Shown: in pieces, positions 2,296 to 60,845 of the stretch
How positions within the stretch are numbered: position 1 is the stretch's first letter
Layout of the letters: every line of letters starts with the position of its first letter
Program-made: the position numbers and the translations under genes
Source of the DNA: a bacterium
GTDB taxonomy: Bacteria; UBP6; UBA1177
NCBI GenBank assembly: GCA_017538365.1
Contig: JAFYIZ010000028.1
Span: 52,962-116,961, forward strand
DNA: 64,000 nucleotides
Direction of reading: 5' to 3'
Notes under the pieces: model-generated
Database searches by the model: none
What the model was told of the DNA's origin: nothing
What the model saw: the letters and a program-made list of their open reading frames with translations, nothing else

Positions 2296-3252
2296 TTAAT
2301 TCCCCTTCAATCCTTTAAGTTTGTTGTCAAGTCTTTTTTCCATTTCCTTTGCCGCGAAAAATCCCATTTTTTTGAGAAGGTAATCGCGTGCTATAGCTTC
2401 CATGAGCGAGCTTAAATTCGAGCCGTTGCGTACCGGAATTATGTAGTAGGCCTTTTTCACGCCCAGGATTTCGTAGTAGTTTATTTTGTCGCCGACGCGC
2501 TCATAGTCGAATTTGTGGATCTCTTCCCACGAAACCAAGCGTACGACGCAGTCGATCTCCTTTTCGGAATCGACCGAGGTTATTCCGAACATCTGCTGCA
2601 GATCGACAAGTCCGATTCCGCGTATTTCGATGAAGTTGCGCCCGATCTCGTTGCAGCTTCCGATAAGTCTGTTGGGCGAGAGGCGCTTGATTTCGACAAA
2701 GTCGTCGGCAATCAGTTTGTGACCGCGCATGACAAGATCCAAACTTGTTTCGCTTTTTCCGACTCCGCTTTCACCCATGATGAGCATTCCGACACTTAAA
2801 ACGTCGATAAGCTGCGCGTGAAGCGAGACTGTCGGAGCAAGTGCCGTGTTCAGAATATCTCTCACATAGTCGGTGAAAACGCTTGAAATCATCGATGTCG
2901 ACATCAGCGGAACATTGTATTTGCGGGCTATTTCCTTGAACTGATCCGTCGGTTTTTCAGGGTAGGTGAAAATAACGAGGATCGGTTTTTCCTTGAGAAA
3001 AGTTTCCGACATTTTGAGCTGATCTTCCGTAGGCAGGGTGCGGAGATAGTCCATTTCGCTCTTTCCGAAAAGCTGGATTCTGTTTTTGTAGAGGTGTGCT
3101 ACAAAACCTGCGATCGAAAGACCGACGACCTGAACTTTGCTTTCGGTAAGTTCGATTTTTTTCATTTCGTCTTCGCTCATGTTTTCGAGCGAAAGATCAA
3201 GCTGAGTATTTTTCAGCAGTTCGTAAAGAGTGTAAAAAGCGGGTCCCGGCAT
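2296..3252 (-). CDS. hprK: HPr kinase/phosphorylase
   Basis: 318 aa. Walker A GESGVGKSETSLDLVMRGHKLIADD, typical of HprK. Confidence 0.9.
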   Translation of the reverse strand: MPGPAFYTLYELLKNTQLDLSLENMSEDEMKKIELTESKVQVVGLSIAGFVAHLYKNRIQLFGKSEMDYLRTLPTEDQLKMSETFLKEKPILVIFTYPEKPTDQFKEIARKYNVPLMSTSMISSVFTDYVRDILNTALAPTVSLHAQLIDVLSVGMLIMGESGVGKSETSLDLVMRGHKLIADDFVEIKRLSPNRLIGSCNEIGRNFIEIRGIGLVDLQQMFGITSVDSEKEIDCVVRLVSWEEIHKFDYERVGDKINYYEILGVKKAYYIIPVRNGSNLSSLMEAIARDYLLKKMGFFAAKEMEKRLDNKLKGLKGN

Positions 3253-4458: not shown

Positions 4459-7400
4459 TTGGAGGTTTTTATGTCTGGCGTTATCAAAACTTCGGAGGCT
4501 TTGAAAGTCAATCTGGCCGAAACTTTTGTTGCGGGTTACGAATTTTCCGAGCAGGAAAAATTCATTCTGAGCGCAGTTGAAAAGCATCCGCTTCTTGAAA
4601 AGAGGATGAGGACTTTCTTTCTAGAGCTCAACCATCCGTTTCCCAATTTTACCGAGGTAATCGAGGCTTACCGCTGGATCACGCTTGAAAATATGTGGGT
4701 TTTCGCTGATCTTGAAGAGAGCGACAAGCTGCTGAAACTTCTCGGTGACTATTTCATGCAGATTTTCTCGCAGAAGCTCGATATTCCGCAGCGCAACAGG
4801 CTCCGTCAGACTATTTTCAACGTCCTTGAACTCCTCTATAAAATTCTGCAGAGCAGCAAAATTTCGGACGAAGTTTTCAATTCTTATCTTGATATAACCG
4901 AAACGGTTCTTGCCGACGGCAATCCTGGGCTTATGGAAGCGTCGAGTTCGCTCAAAAAATATGTTGCCGAAATCTGCAAGGATGAGCGTTTCAGTGCCAG
5001 AATCTTCAAAATGCTCAAGCGCGTAATGACCATAAATCTGGACTACTGGAAAAATGTCGAATCGTTCTCAGACTGGCTTGAAAAGAGGACTATCGAACAC
5101 GGCGACGAGGCGCTGGAAATCGAAAACGCGATACTTTCGCAGTTTCCGCCGGAGCTTTTCACTGAGTGCGAAGAGGGAATTGAAAAGGCTGAAAAGTGCG
5201 AAGACTTCTTCAAACTGCCCGATTACACGTTTTTTACCGACAGATTCCGCAACACGATCGACTTTATTCCGACACCGATATGCAAAATCTACTACATTTT
5301 CTATCTGCTTGATTTTTCGTCTATGGAAAGTCTGCGCGAATACCTTCTTTTCGACCTCAACAGAACTCTGAAGATAGTTTCGATCGACGATGCGGGCGAG
5401 GCAAAACGCTTTATAACGCGCATGTTCGACTTTTTTAAACCCGTCAGAGAGCTTTTCCAGAGCGCGATTCTCGATTGTGTGAAAACGCTCGGAAAAGAGA
5501 TTGTAAAACGCGGCAGCGCGGCAATCTGCGACCACTTTTTTGATGCAGTCATCCGCTTCGGATTCGTTTATCCCGAACTTAAAGGTGTAAACTCCGACTG
5601 GCAGATGATAGTCGACAAAAACCACGTCAAAAACATAAGGACATGGCTTGAAATAATCGAAGTGAACCCCTCGAAAAGCACGAAACTTCTGTCGGCTCTT
5701 CTTGTAAATCTGAGGATCGGCGGCGTTTTTATCTCCGATACCGACCTTTTCCAGAGTGATGTTACGAAGTTTTTGAACAGCCAGATCGCGCCGGCTTACC
5801 ACATCGCGCGCCAGATCGCAGTTCTCTTCCCGGTTTACTTCAACGAGATCGGTGCTGAGGGCGAGCTTAGAAAAATTTCGACTGCGATTGACGAAATATG
5901 CCACAGAAAGGATCTGCTCACTCACTTTTTGAGAAAGCAGATTCACGCAGAGAGCAACAACACCCACATCCAGCTTGCAAAAGATGTCTTCATTTTCTGG
6001 CTCACCGGCAAAAAGGAACACCTTCAGAACAAGATTCCGAACGAAATTTACGAAACTCTCGAGCCGTCCGGCGAAATGTACGAAGGTCTGCACGAAGTCG
6101 CCCGTTTCGTAACGAGCAGGGTAAGAGGCGACTACGAAGCTCTTTTCACGATGAAACCTGCGGAAGTCGAGAAGATCATCGCCGATTTCGGAGCAGGTCA
6201 TGAAGTCGAGCAGAAAAAAGTCGGATACCTTTTCAACATTTATCTGCTTCTCAAGGAAAAATATTATCTCAATCCAGGCGATATTGCGAAAAAACTTAAG
6301 AAAATCACATATATACATCAGGCGACTATTGACGAGTTCGAGGCTGCAATGACTGCCGAGGACTGGAAAAGCGCAGTCAGAATCGCTTTCAAAATCATGT
6401 CCGCCCTCAAAAAGACGGTTCTTTCGGAAGAGCAGACCGAAGGAGTCGAAAACATCTACTACAAACGCCATATCGCAATCGGAATTCCTTCGATGTACGG
6501 CGAATACAGAGAGCCTAAATTCGAGGCTCTGGGCATGATTTACAGGATGGAGCAGCTTGTTTCGACGATGGTTGAAAAGCTGGTTTCAACTACAAAACTT
6601 CCTTATATTTCAGCCGACAATCTGCGTGAGACCTGCGAAATTCTCGAACTTTTCAGAGAAGGTCTGGAGCTCGGCGGTATCACGAGTGAAAATTTCAATT
6701 CCGACCTCAAGATGCTTGAATACAGCCTGGTTTCCTCAAGTTTCTCGCTGCATCAGTACACCAACATTTTCGAATTCTTTGCTGAGGATTTGAGCAAGAT
6801 CGTTTACGACTACTTCCTCGGAATCCACGATTCGAACCTCAAAATCGTCCTTGAACAGTACATTGAAAAGCACAATCTCACCGTTTCATCGGAAAAGGAC
6901 AAAGAGAAGATTATCCACAAGAAAAGCGAGGAATTCTACCGCGACATCATTTCGTCGTCATTCCTCATGCAGCAGATCGACAGCCTGATAAACTACCTTC
7001 TTTCGATTCTGCACGGCATACCGAAGAGCCTGACGCAGGAAGATATCCACATGATAATGACCTACAAGCGCAAATCGATAATTTCAGAAATCGACAAGAA
7101 GGATGACGAGCTCGACAACCAGGTTTTCTTCGGTGCGAAAGGGTATTTCCTGAAAAGAATCAAAGAGTACGGAATGCCGGTTCCGCACGGATTCATCCTT
7201 ACGACCGAGCTTTTCAGACGCCGCGAAGCGCTCATGAAACACCCCGAAATCGAGAAGGAAATTTATACGACGATATCAGATGAACTTGGCATTCTCGAGG
7301 AAAAAACGGGACTCCAGTACGGCAACCCGAACAATCCGCTCATGCTGTCGGTCAGAAGCGGTTCGGCAATGTCGATGCCCGGCGCGATGAACACTTTCCT

Positions 7401-8553: not shown

Positions 8554-8616
8554 TCTTTATTTTTTAGGAAAATTGAGTATAATAATGCGTTTTTTTTGTA
8601 TTTGCAGGAGATTTTT

Positions 8617-9661
8617 TATGAAAAAGTTTTTGACTGTTGTATTTGTTATTATTGCTGCAATGATACTTGTTTCGTGCAGCGGTAAAAATCTTGACGATTT
8701 GATTGATGTTCCTGACACAGGCGATTCCGCTGATTCTTCCGCGACACCGGAACAAAATGACACCGATAATGGCGGTGATGCAAATGAAGACACTGCCGAT
8801 TCGAATGATGATACCGGCGATTCGACGACTGACACCGGCGATTCAAATGCTGATACCGGTGATTCAACGACTGACACCGGCGATTCCGGCAACGAAAACG
8901 ATGCAGACAGTGATTCCGATGATGTCGAAGTTTCGGATATTGATATGTCGGATAACGATCAGGAAGAGTCAGGTGACGATGCAGATTCCTCAGATTCCGA
9001 CAATGATAACGACAAAGATCCCGCAGATTCAGGTGATGACAGCGATACCACGGATTCAGGTGACGACAAAGATCCCGCTGATTCCGGAGATGAGAGCGAT
9101 CCCGCAGATTCAGGTGACGACAGCGATACCACCGATTCGGGTGATGATAACGATACCGATTCAGGCGAAAATCAGCAGAAATGCACTGAAATCACTCTCA
9201 TTAATGCTGATCAACTCAGCTACAATAAAGAGTCTTCAACTAGTCACGTATTCAAAACGACATACACTCCTAACACTGGTTCAAATGATAATTTATACAT
9301 TAAAATTTTTGGTTCCTACACGGATAATTATTCCGATAATTACTCGTTGGCTGGAACGAACTGGAAGGATGACAAAGGATATAACATGGCAAACGGAGTT
9401 TTCGTATATGTTTACGAAAACGAATACTGTGACTACAACGGCAGCAACTGCTCCCATAGCAAAATGTACTTCCAGAGAAAGGGAAATGTCGATGTATCAT
9501 CGATGCAAGTCAATAATTTCGGAACAAACATTTTTTACGCAGATCTTGACGGCGTAGAACTTGAAGAAGTCTCAATCAACGGTGCAAACCAATCAATACC
9601 CAAAGAAGGTGGAGAATGTCTTAAAATCAAGGATACAGAGGTTCATTATCAGTGGTATTAA
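8617..9661 (+). CDS. Lipoprotein with a long acidic D/S/T/G tandem-repeat region (DTGDS / DPADSGDDSDTTDSGDD repeats) and a C-terminal globular domain
   Basis: ATG at 8617 after RBS gcaggaga. Signal and lipobox MKKFLTVVFVIIAAMILVSCSG. The track ORF start at 8429 overlaps the upstream gene and I rejected it. Confidence 0.6.
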
Positions 9662-10396: not shown

Positions 10397-11395
10397 CTAT
10401 TCGCCCTGATTCTGGAGTTCTTTGATTTTTTCTTTGAGAGCTTTTTCTCTTTCCCAGATCTCTTTGAGCTGTTTTCTTGCCTCTTCGTCAGCCTTTTTGG
10501 TGTCTTCGATGAGTTTTTTAAGTCTGTCTCTTTCCTTGTTTTCAGCTACGAGTTCGTCCGGAGTGATGTGAACGCCGTCGATAATGTAGAAGTTGAAGGA
10601 AAGCGGCTGGTCGGGATCCCACTCTTCGGGAATGTCCTTTACGACCGATTTGAAAACCTTTACGGAGTTGGGAAGGAGCGAAGTTCTGAGACCTTCATAT
10701 CTCATATCGGTGACAGGAAGGAAGTTCTCTGCATAGATTACGTCGCCGTTTTTATCTTTGAAACGGACTCTGATGCCGACTCTGATCATATCAAGGTCGC
10801 TGCTGCCGTTGAGGATCGTTCCGGTAAGTTCTGCAAAACCGGGGCGGTCGGGAATCTTTTTACCAGTAATATCATCGATTTTGATGAGTCCTTTGTAGTT
10901 TTTGAGCAGGTTTGCAAGTCTTGCCTGTTCTGCATCACGCTCGGTGATTTCAGCCATAAGAGTCTGAAGTTCGACTTTGAAAGCTTCTCCTTCCTTTACG
11001 ACTCTGACCGTGAAGATGAGCGTTGCGTCTTCATTCATAACGCCTGCCATACGACCCATGTTAGCCGTCTGACCGGTAGCTTCGATGAAAGCCTTGGTTT
11101 CTGCGTCGATAACGATATTTGCACGCGAAGTTCTGATCTCAGTTCCGATTTTGCCTTTGTATGTTGTTGTTGCAAAATCTTTGAAATCTTCGAATGTTAC
11201 GACTTTTTTCATCTCGCTTGAAAGCCAGTTGTCATAAATTTCCTGCAAAGTTCCCTTCTTGCCGTCGGAAGCGTCGCGGACTGCATAAAGATAGCTCTGA
11301 ATGAAAGCGTCGACCTGATCCTGAAGAGATTTCGATTTTTCGCCGCAGCTCAAGAACATCAGCGCTGCAAGCAAGAAAAGCATCAATTTTTTCAT
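10397..11395 (-). CDS. Hypothetical lipoprotein with a C-terminal charged coiled-coil
   Basis: Likely start MKKLMLFLLAALMFLSCGEKS (lipobox). The C-terminus is ENKERDRLKKLIEDTKKADEEARKQLKEIWEREKALKEKIKELQ. Confidence 0.5.
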   Translation of the reverse strand: MKKLMLFLLAALMFLSCGEKSKSLQDQVDAFIQSYLYAVRDASDGKKGTLQEIYDNWLSSEMKKVVTFEDFKDFATTTYKGKIGTEIRTSRANIVIDAETKAFIEATGQTANMGRMAGVMNEDATLIFTVRVVKEGEAFKVELQTLMAEITERDAEQARLANLLKNYKGLIKIDDITGKKIPDRPGFAELTGTILNGSSDLDMIRVGIRVRFKDKNGDVIYAENFLPVTDMRYEGLRTSLLPNSVKVFKSVVKDIPEEWDPDQPLSFNFYIIDGVHITPDELVAENKERDRLKKLIEDTKKADEEARKQLKEIWEREKALKEKIKELQNQGE

Positions 11396-11441: not shown

Positions 11442-13391
11442 TCACTTTAAATATAAGTCAAGAATATAATAACCTTTGATATTCATTGCCGAAATATTGG
11501 AACTTTCGCTCATGAACGGCGTGATTTTTATCGAATATGTTTCTCCGGCTTTCACTTTGCGGGTAATGAAACTGTATTTGTTGAAGTGAAGAGTGGATAT
11601 CATGTCGTCGGAAGTGCCGATTTCAACGCCGTCATGCAGCAGAGTCATCACGGTATCGATATCGAAACTTGTCGATTCGCGGTCAGGACTTGTCGAAATA
11701 TAGACGGTTCCGTCGCGTTCCGCTGTAAATTCGAAAGTGTTCTCGTAAAAATCACTGTCGGTATCGAAATATCCGAAATAAGCTTTGTCAGTCGAAATTT
11801 TTACCGGGTTTTTGTCGGTTCCGTGACTCCATTTTTCAGGTTTCGAGATAATTTCTTCAATCGAAAGAGTCAGTTTCTCACCTGAATTCTGCTCGCATTC
11901 GTTGATAAAAAGTCCGAAAACGAGAGTTTCAGTCAACTCGTATTTTCTTGAAAAAAAGCGGACTGTTTCAGCGGGATCGGGCATTGCAAACGGCAGCAGG
12001 TCACGGTCAAAAATGTAGAGTCCTGCAAGATTTTCAGGCACAGAAAGAGTGATTTCTGCAAGATTTTTTTCTTTGTCGGCAATCCACTTGAAAAATTTCC
12101 AGCCGCAGTCGGGAAGTTCAATCTCAAGCTTGCCGGCGGATGAATCGAAAGTTTCGATTTTTGTCTCTCTGCTGATTTCAAGAGAGTAGGGAACGTCGCT
12201 TCCCAAAAGGTCGAGGTAAATATCTCCGTTGAAAGGCGCGAGCATGTTGATGTTGTGTGTTTCGATGCCGCTCAGCATGTTTGCACGCAGTGCGATAAGG
12301 CCGCTTCCGGTTATGTTGTACGAAGATCCCCAGATTTCGGCAATAAAAGGATTCGGATTTTCGGGAGTGATTTTTATGGAAAGAATATCACCCTTTTCGA
12401 CTTTGAATCTGAACCAGTCTTCGTCGTCGCTCTCAACGCCCAAAATATTTTTCTTTTCAGTGTCCAAATATCCGGAAATATTGGCCGAATCGGTGATGTT
12501 TGCATAGTCGAAGGTGTCGTTCGGTTCAAGTTCCTTTGATTCCGGCTGCTGCGTGAAGGAGACACTGAAAACCTCGTCCTCAGTTTCGTCGAGATCGAGG
12601 AGCATTCTGCCGGTCACGAGAAGATGCCGCAGATTTCCTTCAAGTCTGGAATAGATGAGCGGGTCGATTTTATTGCTGTAGTAGTCTTCATCGTCGTTTC
12701 CTGCGACGATTTCGCGGCTTCCGCAGTTCATGACAAAAGAAAATTTGTTGCTTTTCATATTTTTCGAGTCGACATTCATCTGGTAGAGCGCGCTTTTTTC
12801 AAAAACCGGTTCGAGAATGTCAATATGCTTGCCTGATTGCGAGAAAACTCTTTCAACTGTTGAATTTAATTTGATTTTTTCATAGTTGTCAGCGTCGCAT
12901 ATATGACTTGTTATCACTCTGAAATAATATTTGAATCCACCGACTTTCTTCTCTTCACCTGTGTTTCTTTTGTCGCCTATTTCAAAATAGTTCCAGCCGT
13001 CGGCAGTCGTTACGAAAGTTGCCCTGCGTTTTCCCGGAACTTTGAAAACCGCGAAAGTGTAGTTGCCAAGATTGTCGTTGTGAGCGATGTACGGCTCGAA
13101 ATTTTCTTCTCTGCTTTCAAACTCAAAAGTGATAAGAGTTCCGGAGGGCAGCCAAATCTTGAAAATGTCTGTATCGGCTGAATTTCCCTTGGGTTTTGCA
13201 ATTTCTGCGGCGTAAATGTTTCCTTCAGAAATTTCGAAAGCCGGAAAATCGTTAGGTTCGACTTCGTATATATATTCGGCAGAATCAACGTATTTCGTAT
13301 GTTCGCAGCCGGCAACAAGCGGCAGAAACAATAAAAAATAGAAATATTTCAAAAATTTTAGAGTCAAACAGCCTGCTCCGCAACAAATCAA
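11442..13391 (-). CDS. Secreted/lipoprotein hypothetical protein (649 aa) with two pre-peptidase C-terminal (PPC)-like domains
   Basis: Signal with lipobox FLPLVAGC. Two segments begin EPND..., each followed by a D.DWF.F-type signature: EVEPNDFPAFEISEG... and LEPNDTFDYANI...DEDWFRFKVEKGDILSIKI. Confidence 0.5.
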   Translation of the reverse strand: MICCGAGCLTLKFLKYFYFLLFLPLVAGCEHTKYVDSAEYIYEVEPNDFPAFEISEGNIYAAEIAKPKGNSADTDIFKIWLPSGTLITFEFESREENFEPYIAHNDNLGNYTFAVFKVPGKRRATFVTTADGWNYFEIGDKRNTGEEKKVGGFKYYFRVITSHICDADNYEKIKLNSTVERVFSQSGKHIDILEPVFEKSALYQMNVDSKNMKSNKFSFVMNCGSREIVAGNDDEDYYSNKIDPLIYSRLEGNLRHLLVTGRMLLDLDETEDEVFSVSFTQQPESKELEPNDTFDYANITDSANISGYLDTEKKNILGVESDDEDWFRFKVEKGDILSIKITPENPNPFIAEIWGSSYNITGSGLIALRANMLSGIETHNINMLAPFNGDIYLDLLGSDVPYSLEISRETKIETFDSSAGKLEIELPDCGWKFFKWIADKEKNLAEITLSVPENLAGLYIFDRDLLPFAMPDPAETVRFFSRKYELTETLVFGLFINECEQNSGEKLTLSIEEIISKPEKWSHGTDKNPVKISTDKAYFGYFDTDSDFYENTFEFTAERDGTVYISTSPDRESTSFDIDTVMTLLHDGVEIGTSDDMISTLHFNKYSFITRKVKAGETYSIKITPFMSESSNISAMNIKGYYILDLYLK

Positions 13392-19571: not shown

Positions 19572-20109
19572 CTTTTTTCTCGTTTTTTTATCCCTTGTTT
19601 TTTTATCGGTTTCCTGCGCAACAGCCGAAAAAGTCCAAAATCAGAATAATGAACAGTCGGAAGTGCAGACTGAATCAGGGCCACAGCCTGTTGAGCTGAA
19701 AAAGAAAAAGTCGCTCGCAGATGATATAATCGTTCGTGACATCTACTCGAAAGAAGAGTATCCGCTCAGCAAAATTGCGCAGAAAAGTGTTGTTTTTATT
19801 GAACTTTCTGCTTCATGGTGCAAAGCGTGTCCCGAAATGAAGGATATTACGGCAAAACTTGTTTCCTATTTCGGAAACCGTGTGTTTTTTATCCGTCTTT
19901 ACCTGGAAAACGATATCCAGGAAGATAAAGAATACAACGATATTATTCCGGAAATGGCGGTTGTTTCATCGCCTGTTGAACTTTCGCTTGAAAAAACCGA
20001 TGTTATGCCTCGGGTCGTTGTTTTGAGCAATTCAGCAAGTGAAGTCGCCGCCGATATTATCGGTGCTTATCCGAGTCTTTATTATTACGGATTGCTTTCT
20101 GAACTCTGA
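19561..20109 (+). CDS. Thioredoxin-fold lipoprotein (TlpA/ResA-like thiol-disulfide oxidoreductase)
   Basis: 182 aa. Lipobox LSVSCATAEK. Active-site motif ELSASWCKACPEM (WCxxC). Confidence 0.6.
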   Translation: MKNNFFLVFLSLVFLSVSCATAEKVQNQNNEQSEVQTESGPQPVELKKKKSLADDIIVRDIYSKEEYPLSKIAQKSVVFIELSASWCKACPEMKDITAKLVSYFGNRVFFIRLYLENDIQEDKEYNDIIPEMAVVSSPVELSLEKTDVMPRVVVLSNSASEVAADIIGAYPSLYYYGLLSEL

Positions 20110-47323: not shown

Positions 47324-47386
47324 TGCCGCCGCAGTTATACCGTAATCCCGTGATCACGGCGGCGGCATAAAGAACCGGGATCCCGG
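47324..47386. repeat. GC-rich palindromic intergenic repeat element (locus D): stem tgccgccg/cggcggca enclosing CGTGATCACG, followed by CCGGGATCCCGG
   Basis: Read directly. 8-bp stem at 47324-31/47360-67, perfect 10-nt palindrome at 47349-58, 12-nt palindrome at 47375-86. Shares cores with the repeats at 54457, 56304 and 59926. Confidence 0.7.
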
Positions 47387-47483
47387 TGGCAGCGCGGCGG
47401 CTATAAAAAAATTTGATAAAATTTATTCTTGTTGTTATAAAGCGGCGTTTTTTTTGTTTTTACTTAATTTTTTGGAGTCAGAG

Positions 47484-53774: not shown

Positions 53775-54456
53775 TTCAAAAAAAGCGGTCGTTCTTTTCA
53801 GCGGCGGCCTTGATTCTACGACGGTTTTAGTTTATGCGCTGAAACAGGGTTATGATGTTTATCCGCTCACTTTTTCCTACGGTCAGAGGCACGCGATCGA
53901 AATAAAACAGTCGGAAAGAACGCTTGAAAAATACGGACTTCTGGACAGACAGACGATATTTTCGATTGATCTCACACCGTTTGTAAACTGCTCGCTTATC
54001 AACAAAAATCTGGAAGTTCCAGAATTTGCCGAAAACAGGATTCCTTCGACTTACGTGCCGTCGAGAAACCTTATTTTTCTTTCGGTAGCATCGGGTTTTG
54101 CCGAAACTCTGGGCGCGGAAAAGATTTTCATCGGTGTCAATTCAGTCGATTATTCGGGTTATCCCGACTGCCGTCCTGAATTTGTCGAAGCATTCAATAA
54201 AACGATCGCAGTCGGAACTAAGCAGGGTGTCGAAAGTGGAATAAAAGTTGAAGCACCGATTCTCAACATGTCAAAAAAGGAGATAGTCGAGCTCGGAATG
54301 TCGCTTGGAGTCGACTATTCGCTCACACACAGCTGCTACAACCCGACTCCCGACGGGCTTTCATGCGGAGTCTGCGACAGCTGCCGGCTCAGGCTTGAAG
54401 GTTTCAGACAGGCAGGATTCACTGATCCGCTGAAGTATGCGGCGCGCAAAAAATAA
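53767..54456 (+). CDS. queC: 7-cyano-7-deazaguanine synthase
   Basis: KAVVLFSGGLDSTT (PP-loop). C-terminal zinc Cys CYNPTPDGLSCGVCDSC. Confidence 0.9.
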   Translation: MNNSKKAVVLFSGGLDSTTVLVYALKQGYDVYPLTFSYGQRHAIEIKQSERTLEKYGLLDRQTIFSIDLTPFVNCSLINKNLEVPEFAENRIPSTYVPSRNLIFLSVASGFAETLGAEKIFIGVNSVDYSGYPDCRPEFVEAFNKTIAVGTKQGVESGIKVEAPILNMSKKEIVELGMSLGVDYSLTHSCYNPTPDGLSCGVCDSCRLRLEGFRQAGFTDPLKYAARKK

Positions 54457-54514
54457 CGGGATCACGAGATTCCGGTTTGCCGCCTTCGAGATTACTGGAT
54501 CACGAGATTCCGGG
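54457..54514. repeat. Intergenic repeat (locus A): direct duplication of GGATCACGAGATTCCGG
   Basis: 17-mer at 54458-54474 and 54497-54513. Shares cores CGGGATCACG / GATTCCGG with loci at 56304, 59926 and 47324. Confidence 0.7.
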
Positions 54515-54607
54515 ATTCCGAATAGTGTTTGTGGCGGCTGAAATTTTTGATTTTTTTCCCAAAAAAGCTAAAATTCCTGCCGTTGATTTTTTTTCTAGGA
54601 GGAAAAA

Positions 54608-55708
54608 ATGAAGAAAATCTGGTTGGTTTTAACGATTGTTTGTGTTTTCGTGCTTTCAAGCTGCGGTGGAGACAGCAAAACCCCGACAAAAGTTGAGGAA
54701 GAAACTGAAAACATGCCGGAGGAAGCTGAGGATGTGCAACCAGCTCCCAGTCCAAATGATGGAGCTCCTGAAGAACCTACTAACAGCAATGCGGAGTCTG
54801 ACTCCGGAATTCCCGGCTACACTGTTGAATTCAACATTATTGATATTGACATGATGGGACAGGGACAGTCAATGGCGATTGGCTACTTCATGAAGACTGC
54901 ACGTGAAGATCTGGAAGAAGATGAAGTTGAGGATGTTACGCTCGACACCTGTGTTATGGGTGAATCTTCACCGCGCGTTCCGAAATGTTTAAGCAAAGCC
55001 GACTGTGCTCCTGAGCAGGAATGTGTGCCGGAGACAGACAGCAACGGTAATGTGATCGAAAACAGTGAGCACTGCGAAACTCCGAACAGAGCTTCTCTTG
55101 ATGTAGGACCGGTTGAGATCGCAGGTTTTAACGGAGGTCCTTATCCGTTTGCTTACGAGCCTGGAGATCAGGTTTACAAGATGAATGGAACCGGTGACGG
55201 CAGTATTGACCGTTCTCTTATTGCGTATGGTGTCGACTATACGATTCGCGGCGAAAATATGATTCCAGACGATCTTAATTCGCTTTCAGCAACATTCAGA
55301 ATGCCTCCAATGCTGCAGCTTATCGAACCTGCTGCGACTGAAGGGGGAACATTCGGTGCTGCAATCGCGATCGATAACTCAAAACCGCTCAAATTTGTCT
55401 GGGAAGGCAACGGCGGACAGGGTTATATCGATATCACGATCACGGCGGCTCAGTCTCTTGCCAATACGGTTTCTGTAACATGCAAAGTTATTGACGACGG
55501 CGAATTTACAGTTCCGGAAGAGTTCGCTTCACAGCTCGTTTTCGGCGGCGGCGGTGACGGAATGATGGATCAGATGCTTGCAATGATGAATATGATAATT
55601 TTCGACCGTCATACTGAATCGCCGATTACCGGTGACGGCATTTCTGTCGGCAGAGTTTCGTCGGAACAGCTTATCATGGTTAATGTTCTTCCGACAGGAT
55701 CCAATTAA
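54608..55708 (+). CDS. Hypothetical lipoprotein
   Basis: MKKIWLVLTIVCVFVLSSCGGDSK. Acidic N-terminal region. No recognisable domain. Confidence 0.45.
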   Translation: MKKIWLVLTIVCVFVLSSCGGDSKTPTKVEEETENMPEEAEDVQPAPSPNDGAPEEPTNSNAESDSGIPGYTVEFNIIDIDMMGQGQSMAIGYFMKTAREDLEEDEVEDVTLDTCVMGESSPRVPKCLSKADCAPEQECVPETDSNGNVIENSEHCETPNRASLDVGPVEIAGFNGGPYPFAYEPGDQVYKMNGTGDGSIDRSLIAYGVDYTIRGENMIPDDLNSLSATFRMPPMLQLIEPAATEGGTFGAAIAIDNSKPLKFVWEGNGGQGYIDITITAAQSLANTVSVTCKVIDDGEFTVPEEFASQLVFGGGGDGMMDQMLAMMNMIIFDRHTESPITGDGISVGRVSSEQLIMVNVLPTGSN

Positions 55709-55739
55709 TCTGTAACTAACTTAGCCGCAAGGCAAATTT

Positions 55740-56303
55740 ATGAAAATCATCCGCGTCAATAAAGATTTGATTCTCAAAGAGTTGGAACTTTCTGACGCCG
55801 AACATATCTTCAAATCAATCGATTCACAGCGCGAATATCTTGGGAAATGGCTTCCTTTCGTTGAATTTACCAAAACAGTCAAAGATTCGCTTGACTATGT
55901 CAATTCGGTCGTCACAATGCCTGAAGAATGCAAAGAGTGGCAGTTCTCTGTTTTCTGCGGCGACGATTTTGCAGGGCTTGCAGGATTCAAAGGAACCGAC
56001 AGGCTCAACCGAAAAAGCGAAATAGGCTACTGGCTAAAAGAGGAGTTCCAAGGGCGCGGCATAATGACCGAGTCAGTCCGAGCGCTCATAAATTTCGGCT
56101 TTTCAGAACTCAACCTCAACAGAATCCAGATAAAATGCGCTCCAGACAACATCAAAAGCAACAGAATTCCGCAAAGACTGGGCTTCACTCTTGAAGGAAT
56201 CGAGCGCGACAGCGAATTCGTGAGAGAAGGTGTCTTTCGTGACGCCAATGTGTGGAGTCTTTTGAAAAGAGATTCGGAATCCAGGGATTACGAGAACCAG
56301 TGA
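55740..56303 (+). CDS. GNAT N-acetyltransferase (RimJ/RimL-like)
   Basis: 187 aa. GYWLKEEFQGRGIMTESVRALINFGF, the acetyl-CoA binding motif Q/RxxGxG/A. Confidence 0.65.
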   Translation: MKIIRVNKDLILKELELSDAEHIFKSIDSQREYLGKWLPFVEFTKTVKDSLDYVNSVVTMPEECKEWQFSVFCGDDFAGLAGFKGTDRLNRKSEIGYWLKEEFQGRGIMTESVRALINFGFSELNLNRIQIKCAPDNIKSNRIPQRLGFTLEGIERDSEFVREGVFRDANVWSLLKRDSESRDYENQ

Positions 56304-56377
56304 TCCCGATTGCGGCGCGTCGAGATCCGGTTGCGGCGCTTTTCGGGATTCCGTGATTCCGGTATTCCGAGATCTCG
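56304..56377. repeat. Intergenic palindromic repeat block (locus B) filling the convergent gap between the GNAT gene and lipA
   Basis: Read directly: GTGATCCCG, GCGGCGCGTCGAGATCCGGTTGCGGCGC, CGGGATTCCGTGATTCCGGTATTCCGAGATCTCG. Same cores as loci A, C and D. Confidence 0.7.
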
Positions 56378-57250
56378 TTATTTTGTTGCGCCGCTGATCA
56401 TATTCTGGTGAATTTCTTTTGCGTTGAAGGAGCTTCTGACAAATCTGCCCGAATAAACTTCTTTGAATCCGATGGACAAACCATAGTCGCGCAGTGCGTC
56501 AAATTCAGCCTGAGTGTAGTCTTTTTCAACAGGGATGTGCTGCAGCGACGGGCGGAAATACTGCCCGATGGTCATTATGTCGCATCCTACATCGCGCAGA
56601 TCGCGCATCAGAGCATGGACTTCATCAATATTTTCTCCGACTCCGAGCATTATTCCCGATTTCGTGATAAAACCTTTGCGTTTCATGTAGCAGAGAACGT
56701 CAAGCGAGCGTTTGTAATCAGCCTGCGGGCGCACTTTCGAGTATAAAGATGGGATTGTTTCGACATTGTGGTTGAAAACATCTATCGGCGAATCAGCAAC
56801 GATATCGAGATTTTCCTTTATTCCGAGGAAATCTGGGGTCAGGACTTCGACCAAGGTTTCAGGTGATAACTCTTTGACTTTTTTAACAGTTTCGGCGAAG
56901 TGCGCCGCTCCGCAGTCGGGAAGGTCGTCTCTTGTTACCGAGGTTATTACGGTATAAAGCAAGCCCAGATCTTTTACGGCAAGCGCAAGGTTCATCGGTT
57001 CGTTCGGATCGGGAAGGGGGATGTTTTCATTGTGGACGATGTTGCAGAAGCGGCAGTTGCGGGTGCAGCTGTTTCCCAGAATCAGGAATGTCGCCGTTCT
57101 TTTCTTAAAGCAGTCGCCTATATTCGGGCAGTGCGCCGATTCGCAGACCGAATGAAGGTGGTGCAGACGCAGAATCTGCTTCATTTCGGCAACGAAAGGA
57201 GACTTGAAAGTCGATTTTTTGAGCATTTCCTCAGCCATAATCAGCCTCAT
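56378..57250 (-). CDS. lipA: Lipoyl synthase
   Basis: CESAHCPNIGDCF, FLILGNSCTRNCRFCN (radical SAM CxxxCxxC). Start chosen at MRLIMAEEM. The track ORF extends to 57340 and overlaps rlmN. Confidence 0.85.
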   Translation of the reverse strand: MRLIMAEEMLKKSTFKSPFVAEMKQILRLHHLHSVCESAHCPNIGDCFKKRTATFLILGNSCTRNCRFCNIVHNENIPLPDPNEPMNLALAVKDLGLLYTVITSVTRDDLPDCGAAHFAETVKKVKELSPETLVEVLTPDFLGIKENLDIVADSPIDVFNHNVETIPSLYSKVRPQADYKRSLDVLCYMKRKGFITKSGIMLGVGENIDEVHALMRDLRDVGCDIMTIGQYFRPSLQHIPVEKDYTQAEFDALRDYGLSIGFKEVYSGRFVRSSFNAKEIHQNMISGATK

Positions 57251-57302
57251 TGAACATTCATAAAACGCGGGATTTAAGCCTTTGAAACGGCGCTTGTCAA
57301 GG

Positions 57303-58322
57303 TTAATTTTTGACTCTTCCGAGTTGTCCGCAGGCTGCAAGTTTGTCGCTGCCGCGCGATTTCCTTATGAGTGCGGTTACGTTTTTGGCAATCAGAATAT
57401 TCTGGAAGTCGATGATTTTTTTCATCGGTGTCGGTTCGAAAGCGGCTCCGTCAAAGGTGTTGAAGGGGATGAGATTGACTTTTGCATCGTATCTTTTCGC
57501 GATTTTTGCGAGTTTTTCGGCATCTTCCGGAGTGTCATTGAAATTTTTGAGCATAACATACTCTAGGACGACCATTTTTCGTGAAATCGGATAGGAATCT
57601 ATTGCCTTTAGCAGCGCCGAAAGCGGATATTTTTTATTTATCGGCATGATTTTACTGCGTTTTTCATCGGTAACTGCATGAAGGGAAACGGCGAGGTTGA
57701 CTTTCGTTTTTTCACCGAGTTCTACGATTTTATCGGCAACGCCTGAAGTCGAAACGGTGATTTTTCTATTTGAAAAGTTGAAGCAGAAATCATCCATTAA
57801 AATATCTATTGCGTCAAGCAGGTTTTCAAAGTTTAAAAGCGGCTCTCCCATTCCCATGAAAACGAGATTTGTGATTTTTTTCCCGCTTTTTTCAGCTTCG
57901 ATCTGTGCAGACAAAACCTGACCAGTGATTTCGGAAACTGTGAGATTCCGCTTGAAACCGAGGCTTCCCGTGCGGCAGAAAGCGCAGTGAAGAGGGCACC
58001 CAGCCTGGGTCGAAACACAGAGGGTGCAGCGCGTCTCTTCAGGGATTATGACCGCTTCGACAGCGTTTCCGTCAAATAGCCCGAAAGCTAATTTCTGCGT
58101 GCCGTCGGACGATGTGAAAACTTCTTCCGGTACCATCGGCGTGATTGAGAAAAGTCCGGCAAGTTTAGCGCGGTCGTCCTTGCTGATGTTGCTCATTTCA
58201 TCGAACGAAAAAACTCTTTTCTGATAGATCCACTGGGTTATCTGGGTTGCTTTGAACTTCGGAAAACCGTTTTCTAGAAGAAATCCTTCGAGTTTTTTTC
58301 TTGTTAAATCAAATATTTCCAT
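57303..58322 (-). CDS. rlmN: 23S rRNA (adenine2503-C2)-methyltransferase RlmN
   Basis: 339 aa. CVSTQAGCPLHCAFCRTG, GMGEPLLN, C-terminal ACGQL. Confidence 0.9.
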   Translation of the reverse strand: MEIFDLTRKKLEGFLLENGFPKFKATQITQWIYQKRVFSFDEMSNISKDDRAKLAGLFSITPMVPEEVFTSSDGTQKLAFGLFDGNAVEAVIIPEETRCTLCVSTQAGCPLHCAFCRTGSLGFKRNLTVSEITGQVLSAQIEAEKSGKKITNLVFMGMGEPLLNFENLLDAIDILMDDFCFNFSNRKITVSTSGVADKIVELGEKTKVNLAVSLHAVTDEKRSKIMPINKKYPLSALLKAIDSYPISRKMVVLEYVMLKNFNDTPEDAEKLAKIAKRYDAKVNLIPFNTFDGAAFEPTPMKKIIDFQNILIAKNVTALIRKSRGSDKLAACGQLGRVKN

Positions 58323-58324
58323 TT

Positions 58325-59191
58325 TTACCAGCCGAAAAAGAATGAAAGCATTGAATTTATGATTTCAGTCGGAAGCAGGAACATGACGAGGCCCCCGAAA
58401 GCTAAGAACGGACCGAAATAAATTGCGTGTTCGACATCTTTTTCCTCTTTTGAATTGAGGTCTTCAGCTGAAATGTTGCCGGCGATGCGTTTTTTGCCGA
58501 ATATTAGTTTTGCCGCGAGATAAAAAATTATTCCGCCGAGCGATGCGATAAGCAGGATGAACGGTATCATGACCGGCCCAGTGAACGCGCCGATTGCAGC
58601 TAAAATCCAGACATCGCCCAGACCCATGCCGATTTTTTTAGTAACGAGGTAGAAAATGAGGATTGCGAGCAGAAGAAATCCTGCGCCGACGCCTATTCCG
58701 ATGAGGGATTGCTGCCAGCTGAAAGTCGGTTCGAAGAAGCTCCAAAGAATACCCATGAAGATCGGCGGGATTATCACTTTCGAATAAACGAACTGCGTTC
58801 TGTAGTCGATTGCCGCGGTGACGACAAGTGCCGAAATGAAGTAAAGCGGGAGTATCAGACGCGGATAAAAACCGAATTTAAGGAATGCAAAAAGGTATAA
58901 AAAGGCGTTCAGAAGCTCGATTACAGGATAGATAAGTGAGATTTTTTCACCGCAGCCCGAGCATTTTCCGCGCAGGAAAATCCAGCTGAAGACGGGAATA
59001 TTTTCATACCATGTTATTTTATGGTTGCATTTCGTGCAGGAACTCGGCGGAAAAACGATGCTTTTGCCGAGCGGAATGCGGTAGATGCAGACATTGAGAA
59101 AACTGCCGAAAAGAAGCCCGTAAATAAAGACGAAAACGGCTGAAAAAGTCGCGAAACGCGGTGAATTGAAAAGTACGAAAAACTCTTCCAT
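58325..59191 (-). CDS. Prepilin peptidase (A24 family, PilD-like)
   Basis: ATG at 59191 after RBS ggag. MEEFFVLF..., LLFGSFLNVCIYRIPLG, zinc tetracysteine CTKCNHKI...CSGCGEKI. I rejected the 150-aa N-terminal extension in the track ORF. Confidence 0.7.
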   Translation of the reverse strand: MEEFFVLFNSPRFATFSAVFVFIYGLLFGSFLNVCIYRIPLGKSIVFPPSSCTKCNHKITWYENIPVFSWIFLRGKCSGCGEKISLIYPVIELLNAFLYLFAFLKFGFYPRLILPLYFISALVVTAAIDYRTQFVYSKVIIPPIFMGILWSFFEPTFSWQQSLIGIGVGAGFLLLAILIFYLVTKKIGMGLGDVWILAAIGAFTGPVMIPFILLIASLGGIIFYLAAKLIFGKKRIAGNISAEDLNSKEEKDVEHAIYFGPFLAFGGLVMFLLPTEIINSMLSFFFGW

Positions 59192-59355
59192 TTTGCACTC
59201 CAAAATCAACAAAAAACCAGTAATTTTTGACATAACAGAGGAAAAGTCAATCAAATTCGGCACTGCCGCTCGTGATCCCGGCAAGACTTCGGCGGCGCTC
59301 TTGTTTTTCCAATGCTTTTCTTTAAAATCTCGGCAACTTGTTTCGGGAGGACGAA

Positions 59356-59940
59356 ATGAAAATAGTTTTTGCATCCGGAAACCGCGGGAAACTGCGCGAG
59401 GCCGGAGAGATATTTTCGGGTTTTGAGATCGTGCCGATAAGCGCTTTTCCCACTTGGAATGCACCTGTTGAAAACGGTTCAACTTTTCTGCAGAATGCGG
59501 TGATAAAGGCTGAAGCTGCTGCTGCGGCGGCTGAAGGAGAGATTGTTCTTGCTGACGATTCAGGCCTGGTTGTTCCTGCTTTAAACGGTGCCCCAGGCAT
59601 TTTTTCGGCCCGTTTTTCTGCGGAAGGGACCGATGCGGCAAACAGAAAAAAACTTCTTGCCGAACTTTCCGGAATTAATGACAGAAGTGCATACTTCCTC
59701 TGCACGGCGGTTCTTATTTTTCCGGACAAAACTGTGATTGCGGCAGAGGGAAGATGTTACGGTAAAATAATTGAAACCGAGCGTGGAAACAACGGTTTCG
59801 GCTACGACCCGGTTTTTGTGCCCGACGGCTATGAAAAGACTTTGGCGGAACTTTCGGAAGAAGAGAAAAATTCTATCAGCCACCGCGGAAAAGCCTTTCG
59901 AAAATTGATCGGCGCCGCTGATCTTCACGAGATCTCGTGA
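59356..59940 (+). CDS. rdgB: dITP/XTP pyrophosphatase (RdgB/Ham1)
   Basis: MKIVFASGNRGKLREAGEIF, FGYDPVFVPDGYEKTLAEL, ISHRGKAF. Confidence 0.85.
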   Translation: MKIVFASGNRGKLREAGEIFSGFEIVPISAFPTWNAPVENGSTFLQNAVIKAEAAAAAAEGEIVLADDSGLVVPALNGAPGIFSARFSAEGTDAANRKKLLAELSGINDRSAYFLCTAVLIFPDKTVIAAEGRCYGKIIETERGNNGFGYDPVFVPDGYEKTLAELSEEEKNSISHRGKAFRKLIGAADLHEIS

Positions 59941-60019
59941 TCTCGGAATCCCGTGATACCGAAGCGGCGCAACCCTTGCGGGATCACGTAATCCCGGAAT
60001 CTCGGAATCCCGAAGCGCC
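59926..60019. repeat. Intergenic palindromic repeat block (locus C), overlapping the rdgB stop codon
   Basis: CACGAGATCTCGTG palindrome (59926-59939), then TCTCGGAATCCCGTGAT, GCGGCGCAACCCTTGCGGGATCACG, TAATCCCGGAATCTCGGAATCCCGAAGCGCCGCC. Same cores as loci A, B and D. Confidence 0.7.
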
Positions 60020-60092
60020 GCCCACGATTTTTTTTGACTTTTGAAGGCTCTTCAATATAAAGGCGCGTTATTTTTTTGTTTTATTTCTATTT

Positions 60093-60845
60093 TTGGAGGA
60101 AATTATGGCTTTGAAGCTTAGAGGCGCAAGAAAAGCTAAGAAAAAAGAGCTTGAAACGGCGGCAAATATCGTTGAAAATGACGCTTTTCAGGAGCAGGGG
60201 AAAAAGGTTGTTCTCGAACATCCTTACTTTATTTTCGGTTGTGTTGCAGCGATCGTTGTTGTTGTTATTGTCGCAATGCTTATTTCGACTGCTGTAAAAT
60301 CGGCATCAGATGCAAAATCGCTTGAATATGCCGCAGCGACGGAACTTCTTGACAAGGCTGACGATGACTCGTCGGAAAACGCTAAAGCAACTTACGAGCA
60401 GGCTCTTGCCGCTTTCGACAAAGTTATAAAAAATCAGTCCGGTTCGATGAATGCGGCTGCTTCAATGGTATTTTCAGGTCGTATTTACAAAGAAAGCATG
60501 AACAACTGCGACAAGGCGGTTGATTTCTTCAAACAGGCACGCACTAGCGGAAAACTCAGCACCGATGTCCGCTTTGTAGCTTACGAAGGCGAGGCAATGT
60601 GCTACTTCGATAAAGGCGATTACGAAAAAGCTGTTGATCTCTGGAAGGAATGGCTCAATCAGAAAACCGATATCTATAAGGATTACGCGCTTTACTACAC
60701 CGGCATGACCTATGAAAAACTCGGAAAAGCCGATGAAGCGGCTGTTTATTACAACAGATTGAAAGACGAATATCCGAAGAGCCTTCTTCTTGCAAAAATC
60801 ACGGGCAAAGTTACAACAAAAGAGCCTGAAAAAGCACAGAATTAA
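60093..60845 (+). CDS. Membrane-anchored TPR-repeat protein (YfgM-like)
   Basis: 250 aa. Single transmembrane helix FIFGCVAAIVVVVIVAMLI, followed by TPR-like repeats. Stop overlaps the next start (taATG). Confidence 0.4.
   Translation: MEEIMALKLRGARKAKKKELETAANIVENDAFQEQGKKVVLEHPYFIFGCVAAIVVVVIVAMLISTAVKSASDAKSLEYAAATELLDKADDDSSENAKATYEQALAAFDKVIKNQSGSMNAAASMVFSGRIYKESMNNCDKAVDFFKQARTSGKLSTDVRFVAYEGEAMCYFDKGDYEKAVDLWKEWLNQKTDIYKDYALYYTGMTYEKLGKADEAAVYYNRLKDEYPKSLLLAKITGKVTTKEPEKAQN

Follow-up and report, generated by a model that had tools for sequence, protein, structure and literature searches.

REP-like repeats are known mainly from Proteobacteria, and their origin, their spread and their benefit to the host are still debated. 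BIME and REPIN doublets consist of two palindromic units in inverse orientation with a linker between them, and REPs and REPINs are associated with a single-copy RAYT, a Y1/HUH transposase that is flanked by the repeats. The BOX elements of Streptococcus pneumoniae, whose modules boxA, boxB and boxC measure 45-60 nt each, have end modules that are conserved and internal repeats that vary in number, are predicted to form stable stem-loops and lie near gene ends. NIME combine the 20-bp unit dRS3 (ATTCCC-N8-GGGAAT) with interiors that are non-periodic blocks of 50-150 bp, exchangeable between loci. [quoted passage not shown] REP and BIME elements are located at 3' ends in a copy number that varies per locus, and the roles proposed for them are stabilisation of mRNA 3' ends, termination, topological insulation and protein binding (PMC3333891, PMC3733652).

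The window, which is the whole 64-kb stretch of DNA analysed here and belongs to a metagenome contig from ruminant gut, carries a repeat block, locus B, between two convergent genes. The GNAT gene (55740-56303, + strand), which matches the Pfam models Acetyltransf_1, Acetyltransf_3 and Acetyltransf_4, ends with a TGA stop at 56301-56303, and lipA (56378-57238, - strand), which matches Radical_SAM and is named lipoyl synthase in the source, ends with a TAA stop at 56380-56378. With both stops located, positions 56304-56377 are exactly the 74-nt gap between them, as the initial annotation had it. The gap is wholly repeat and the cores quoted for it are found there; the limits set at the two stops do not hold, since the repeat block really extends from 56269 to 56394, passes both of them and supplies the stop codons and the last codons of GNAT and lipA.

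Locus B opens with an array of five degenerate octamers (56269-56308; on the + strand GAGATT CGGAATCC AGGGATTA CGAGAACC AGTGATCC CG), which overlaps the last 11 codons of GNAT and its TGA stop. An extra G+C heptamer, the clamp copy GCGGCGC, follows at 56312-56318 and is missing from the orthologous gap of the sister species L247. The solitary octamer CGAGATCC at 56321-56328 is the leftover of an array between two clamp copies, and the second GCGGCGC clamp of the gap lies at 56333-56339. There begins the one complete module of the locus, 62 nt long (56333-56394, - strand), for which a clamp-closed hairpin fold is predicted. It contains four tandem octamers, CGGGATTC CGTGATTC CGGTATTC CGAGATCT, with a closing CG (56344-56377), an A/T-rich spacer (56378-56387, - strand) that holds the lipA TAA stop and two sense codons, and the partner clamp GCGCCGC (56388-56394), which is placed within lipA codons (..I S G A T K and stop, the last 5 codons). 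In canonical orientation, which is the lipA sense strand, the module reads GCGGCGC, spacer AACAAAATAA, four units, CGAAAA and GCGCCGC.

The proposal that locus B is of the same family as three other blocks of the window, loci A, C and D, is borne out by the pattern CGNNATNNCGNNATNNCG, which has 12 matches in the window where 0.11 are expected, a number reached in 0 of 100 shuffles, and all 12 lie inside these four loci. Locus A (54439-54538) has two modules with a common middle clamp, in the order GCGGCGC(GC), 2 units, GCCGCC, 4 units and GGCGGC, and its first clamp lies inside the last queC codons. Locus C (47325-47401), which is 3' of an M29 peptidase gene, reads GCCGCCGC, 2-3 units, CGGCGGCGGC, 1 unit and GCGGCGGC. 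Locus D (59912-60021, + strand) has two complete modules (59912-59970 and 59964-60021) that share a middle clamp and stand head-to-tail, judged by their spacer tags, and the Ham1-like ORF stops within its first array. Beyond the four named loci there is a fifth, locus E (59259-59298), a decayed module that retains a single unit, CGTGATCC, and is flanked by the divergent prepilin-peptidase and Ham1 genes.

All five loci of the window are intergenic or overlap ORF ends (three tandem, one convergent, one divergent). The last 3-11 codons and the stop codon of lipA (56378-56394), queC (54439-54456), the Ham1-like gene (59912-59940) and GNAT (56269-56303) come from the repeat. About 30 of the 35 3' gaps of at least 40 nt in the window have no module, and all five loci lie in the 47-60 kb region; positions 1-47000 are free of modules although they contain about 25 intergenic gaps of at least 40 nt. 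The window has other features as well. Positions 8703-9200 carry coding tandem repeats of 21, 27 and 54 nt, in an Asp/Ser/Thr-rich stretch of a putative secreted or lipoprotein ORF. The motif TATAAT-N4-6-GCG-T8 stands shortly upstream of start codons at 8578, 13506, 16959, 37298 and 47436, and may be a promoter or 5'-leader architecture typical of the lineage.

Modules of this family, with a length of 59.7±2.1 nt (n=28), consist in order of a G+C-only clamp of 6-8 bp, a spacer of 8-11 nt, four 8-nt units, CGA(A/G) and the complementary clamp, and the interior enclosed by the clamp measures about 45 nt. They occur singly or as doublets with a common middle clamp (loci A, B and D, and positions 5010-5134 of L093, a locus from another rumen MAG), and in a MAFFT alignment of modules the clamps are out of register. 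Between one clamp and the first unit, most of the 28 modules keep an asymmetric motif, (A/T)TCTTG(Y), found in the window at 59919-59927 and 59971-59978, which by analogy with the GTAG of REPs could be a recognition tag.

The unit pattern, CG-DD-AT-HH, is its own reverse complement. Among 173 units, position 3 is A in 70, G in 64, T in 37 and C in 2; position 4 is A in 75, G in 70, T in 26 and C in 2; position 7 is C in 75, T in 50, A in 43 and G in 5; and position 8 is T in 92, C in 43, A in 38 and G in none. Thus C is excluded from position 3 (2/173) and G from position 8 (0/173). Positions 3 and 8 are complementary in 78 units against 61 expected, and R4-Y7 pairs are not enriched. Many units are perfect 10-bp palindromes (CGAGATCTCG, CGGGATCCCG, CGGAATTCCG, CGAAATTTCG). 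Perfect palindromy was rejected as the rule of the units, the excess being weak, and clusters of GATC or GANTC methylation sites were rejected too, with A as frequent as G at position 4 and T or A as frequent as C at position 7.

The 28 modules were chosen for perfect clamps, which makes counts of clamp pairs among them circular, and clamp pairing was therefore judged by permutation and flank tests. The query of the metagenome scan contained the 5' CGCCGC and three units, and left the 3' clamp unspecified. Nevertheless, the complement GCGGCG is found within 27 nt on the 3' side of 15 of the 22 low-GC, non-simple arrays, against a direct copy in 1 of 22 and a background rate of 1.7% (p=3e-22). 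Inverted GC 6-mers flank 28 of 44 arrays and direct ones 7 of 44; permuted partners give 17.0±2.4, so that clamps of differing sequence are each matched by their own complement. The clamp is a true inverted repeat.

Like the REP, BIME and REPIN elements of Enterobacteria and Pseudomonas, the modules are multi-copy, G+C-rich imperfect palindromes, intergenic and, in the loci examined, mostly located just 3' of ORFs. As in REP and BIME, they cluster as doublets, vary in repeat number at a locus, keep a species-specific consensus in concert and are foldable in the transcript. They differ from REPs in size (about 60 nt) and in build, with a G+C clamp of 6-8 bp around about 45 nt that hold four 8-nt units. 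The tag (A/T)TCTTGY sits inside the clamp and is not a terminal GTAG or CGTC; GTAG/CTAC is found in 0 of 28 modules, and CGTC (2/28) and GACG (6/28) have no fixed position. Unlike REP and BIME elements, the doublets share a clamp and appear head-to-tail, and modules also stand between divergent genes. Among the Pfam calls for the window (~64 kb) and for 20-kb samples of its relatives there is no Y1_Tnp family.

Similarity to the other systems is partial. With BOX the family shares a modular intergenic build, predicted stem-loops and a position near gene ends, but its internal repeats are 8-nt units, the sequences are unrelated and the BOX host belongs to a different phylum. With NIME it shares short inverted repeats that bracket variable interiors, as in the interiors of the sister species L246 at orthologous sites described below, but the octamer register has no counterpart in NIME. 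CRISPR arrays have identical repeats of 25-40 nt and unique spacers of similar length; this identity was rejected for the octamer arrays, whose units are 8 nt long, contiguous and non-identical. Rfam at its gathering threshold finds two tRNAs and no other match in the window and no match in nine related loci, and a permissive search (E<=10) of 54400-60100 returned a chance snoRNA match and nothing else. The literature search on octamer or 8-bp intergenic repeats and on the literal sequences returned nothing relevant. The modules are an undescribed family, REP-like in behaviour and outside the described REP superfamilies.

Related modules are present in three sister species, in the other rumen MAG (L093) and in rumen metagenomes, where the scan recovered about 20 contigs of the same design. 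When the GTDB representative genomes were scanned for three CGNRATYN units, the matches listed included one MAG locus that is clearly related, L093 (goat duodenum MAG RGIG2292), which has one divergent module locus (3020-3077) and one convergent. A phage origin was rejected: the scan of viral contigs gave 3 matches with one true module, an AT-rich bona fide one (L252, 1214-1290) on the 34-kb viral-classified contig IMGVR_UViG_3300037454_000495. Two hits of the metagenome scan, L127 and L219, are unrelated CRISPR arrays whose repeat CTTCAATGGGGCCGCGATCACGTGATCGCGGAAT matches the query by chance.

Three syntenic sister species (L247, L244/L245 and L246) were compared with the window. The genes they have in common with it are 85-90% identical in DNA, and identity at four-fold sites among the four sister genomes is 0.48-0.71. 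Across alignable orthologous units, the CG and AT positions are identical in 123 of 128 cases (96%) and the other positions in 65 of 128 (51%; Fisher p=1e-17). The scaffold, comprising the clamps and the CG/AT register, is shown to have been preserved between species at orthologous sites, whether by selection or by concerted evolution, and the variable positions drift at about the neutral rate. Hypermutation of positions 3, 4, 7 and 8 was first suspected, given how nearly identical the adjacent promoter DNA is from species to species, and was rejected since their 51% identity is close to that of flanking four-fold sites (48-71%). A diversity-generating retroelement was likewise rejected, as the variation goes beyond adenines and there would seem to be neither a template nor a reverse transcriptase.

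The gap between lipA and GNAT differs from genome to genome. It has 74 nt in the window (one module, a remnant of clamp and unit, and an array), 56 nt in L247 (one module and an array), 5 nt in L244 (four units without GC clamps, still with a small hairpin) and 10 nt in L246 (two inverted arrays of another 8-nt unit, CGTNACGN). Consequently the C-terminal tail of lipA is different in every close relative and matches whichever repeat follows. All four sister species still have an octamer-based hairpin in this gap, although its sequence has turned over. The modules of the L246 dialect, with the unit CGNCGTNA / CGTNACGN, have a GC clamp, 4-5 units of 8 nt and a length of about 57 nt, and occupy orthologous sites of loci B, A and C (10853-10925, 12729-12774 and 19819-19874); a normal CG..AT module is also present in the L246 locus, at 6266-6325.

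Other loci vary in a similar manner. Locus A is present in the window and L247, is an empty site in L244 and is replaced in L246 by a block of the other dialect. The window, L247, L244 and L141 all have locus D with its clamps and spacers conserved, and the Ham1 stop codon falls at differing places within its array among genomes. D2 has 2 or 4 units, and locus E has 1 unit in the window, 3 in L247 and 4 in L244. The locus C module is inverted between the window (47325-47401) and L244 (19804-19858), judged by the TTATAC spacer that adjoins the array. Three more distant relatives, with lipA 85, 78 and 65% identical, have no period-8 arrays in the 20 kb examined of each.

These comparisons also bear on whether the blocks are genuine. 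That they are low-complexity runs arisen by chance, or an artefact of assembly or adapters, has a negligible probability: in favour of it there is a superficial resemblance of CGAGATCT and CGAGAT(CT) to what we take to be the ends of Illumina adapters, and nothing else. The counts are far above chance, ORFs run in frame into the repeat, and diverged orthologous copies with conserved gene context turn up in other projects as well as in other species. Three independent assemblies carry an identical locus D, and contigs from seven samples encode an identical GNAT protein; the independent assemblies refute an artefact.

The same turnover could be that of a mobile element. MITEs have terminal inverted repeats, a target-site duplication and a related autonomous IS, and the modules resemble them in their TIR-like clamps. 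The modules could be purely selfish and non-autonomous elements, similar to MITEs or REPINs, with their transposase elsewhere and no function for the host, the lipA-GNAT site being a tolerated insertion; we consider this conceivable but doubtful. Their multiple copies, limited to intergenic spacers and dispensable ORF tails, point in this direction, as do the presence or absence of locus A, the inversion of locus C and the gain and loss of units. So do the conserved asymmetric tag near one clamp, which is reminiscent of the unpaired tags of REPs, the one module on a viral-classified contig, and the narrow phyletic range of the modules, which are absent from the 20 kb examined of each of the three more distant relatives. 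However, the orthologous scaffold is 96% kept while neutral sites are 30-50% diverged, and a selfish element would be expected to decay unless conversion or selection were ongoing. In addition, no target-site duplication is visible between the filled and the empty site of locus A, no transposase is found in about 100 kb of annotated neighbourhood, and the GTAG tag is missing from all 28 modules.

The palindromic character stated in the initial annotation is confirmed by folding of a 141-nt block (56265-56405), which is more stable than shuffles on both strands with RNA and with DNA parameters. As RNA its two strands reach -53.4 and -44.7 kcal/mol (z -2.4 and -2.5), and with DNA parameters the z values are -3.3 and -1.5. 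The expected RNA structure on both strands thus holds for the extended block but not for the 74 nt alone (z -1.2 and -0.9). In the + strand fold of the 141-nt block, the array that lies in GNAT is predicted to pair with the array on the lipA side. Modules of L093 fold at z -4.9 to -6.0, and loci C and D at about -3. Shuffling the variable unit positions leaves the energy unchanged, with a mean z of -0.14 for modules and +0.22 for arrays (n=29), which means that foldability belongs to the unit pattern and the clamp. A specific hairpin inside the array was rejected, since there is no covariation and pattern-preserving shuffles fold as well.

Intrinsic terminators have a G+C-rich stem, a loop of 3-8 nt and a U-tract immediately after it. 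The modules share with them a G+C-rich inverted repeat just past the stop codon, but lack the U-tract, have a very large interior and occur in no fixed orientation, promoter regions included. The initial annotation had suggested a bidirectional terminator, and a dedicated Rho-independent one, evolved for the lipA/GNAT pair, would agree with the placement of the block exactly between two convergent stops, with its G+C-rich inverted repeats, with the folding of the extended block on both strands and with the hairpin kept in the gap of four species; even so, it is improbable. No T-run follows the clamps of locus B on either strand, and among the 28 modules a T-run stands directly after the clamp in 1 on the canonical strand and in 5 on the other. 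The clamp encloses about 45 nt and not a loop of 3-8 nt, and the 74 nt alone are no more stable than shuffles. A terminator scan over 54 kb of the window found sites no commoner than in shuffles and none at locus B; sigma-70-like sites exceed shuffles (36 vs 25 and 35 vs 24) and terminator-like sites do not. The same element also occurs where genes diverge, and it may point either way: its orientation with respect to the genes varies and flips at one orthologous site, and the flanks of L093 3020-3077 are T-rich upstream and A-rich downstream, which is the reverse of a terminator. Given the missing U-tracts and the modules between divergent genes, a dedicated bidirectional terminator is not supported. 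Locus B is a compound member of a repeat family spread through the genome and not a purpose-built terminator.

The best reading of the family, to which we give an even chance, is a REP/BIME-like structured repeat that forms an RNA 3'-end hairpin on either strand. The clamp would close a hairpin of about 60 nt, whose interior is a short spacer (often ..TCTTGY) with four CG-DD-AT-HH units; since the unit pattern is self-reverse-complementary, either DNA strand or its transcript can fold into a clamp-closed imperfect hairpin. Modules fill the space from the stop codon to the next promoter and often give the upstream ORF its stop and last codons. At locus B, the lipA transcript and the convergent GNAT transcript would each finish within clamp-closed hairpins or run into them, and these hairpins may serve as a 3'-end structure with strand symmetry, as a barrier to exonucleases and/or as a non-canonical pause or insulator that separates the transcription units. 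The block may accordingly be one that stabilises or delimits 3' ends. The REP-like reading is supported by the turnover of unit number, orientation and presence, as in BIMEs, with the scaffold kept. Counting against it are the many 3' gaps of the window that have no module, the lack of covariation inside the arrays, and the failure to find a transposase or a target-site duplication.

This REP-like reading is arguably incomplete. Two of the seven loci (locus E and one L093 locus) are flanked by divergent genes, which makes a 3'-end role impossible there, module orientation is not tied to transcription, and neither the invariance of CG and AT nor the exclusion of C3 and G8 is needed for a hairpin. 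Taken together, these features speak for a further reader with dyad symmetry (a protein, nuclease or transposase), and the invariant CG/AT register hints at a symmetric one. The dialect swap of L246, with its architecture retained, pulls towards structure.

MetJ operators are tandem series of 2-5 dyad-symmetric 8-bp met boxes (AGACGTCT), with dyads within and between units, in the promoters of met genes. The octamer arrays resemble them in geometry alone, by the period of 8 and the strand-symmetric unit, and differ in the unit (CG-DD-AT-HH), in their location at gene ends (lipA, queC, Ham1 and M29 peptidase) and in their flanking clamps. The array could be an operator-like site for a dyad-symmetric reader, such as a cooperative dimer every 8 bp, as with MetJ, or a nuclease or transposase; the clamps would delimit the array, which would act on the DNA as a roadblock, an insulator, a nucleoid-structuring site or a recombination site. 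We rate this as unlikely. In its favour, CG and AT are invariant and strand-symmetric within every unit, C3 and G8 are excluded though a C:G pair would suit a hairpin equally, and covariation is missing within arrays. The scaffold is conserved between species and the remaining positions drift, perfect 10-bp palindromes are frequent among the units, modules are found with every arrangement of the flanking genes and themselves lie either way round, and the four units, 32 bp, would span about three turns of B-DNA. Against these points, no candidate protein was found, palindromy within units is weakly enriched, adjacent arrays are out of 8-bp phase (starts 51 and 55 nt apart), and the covarying clamp points to pairing of strands. 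The L246 dialect CGNCGTNA, with clamp and size kept, favours architecture or else needs a second reader. The REP-like, operator-array and selfish readings are not mutually exclusive.

Arrays of CG-DD-AT-HH units without clamps, with 4-11 units, occur in many rumen and gut Bacteroidales MAGs among the matches listed (L008-L120), with Prevotellaceae, Muribaculaceae, Paludibacteraceae and Bacteroidaceae as hosts; examples are L019 3399-3500, L030 6320-6420, L064 1170-1290 and L120 407-700. In the arrays listed, CG and AT are invariant, C3 is present in 0 of 126 units and G8 in 4 of 126, and this adherence to the same rule again favours the operator-like array. They sit in intergenic spacers and recur within single MAGs, with at least 5 matches in CAYOUJ01, and neither an Rfam family nor a literature match was found for them. 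It is a distinctly speculative idea, and one we hold to be quite unlikely, that the CG-DD-AT-HH array is the functional core of cross-phylum cis-elements read every 8 bp by a conserved dyad-symmetric factor, with the GC clamps and the 60-nt hairpin as lineage-specific packaging. If true, array and reader would be an undescribed genome-structuring, roadblock or recombination system.

The family is a structurally distinct REP-like repeat in an abundant uncultured rumen lineage, with a possible link to the similar Bacteroidales arrays. In housekeeping genes (lipA, GNAT, queC and Ham1) its modules rewrite the C-terminus and the stop codon, and they can mislead gene callers and terminator predictors in rumen MAGs. 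The rule set is unusually explicit (the size is fixed, the units number four, CG and AT keep an invariant register and certain bases are excluded), and the orthologous copies in several species make the constraint on it measurable. If the register reflects a protein reader, the family would provide a defined motif for finding that protein.
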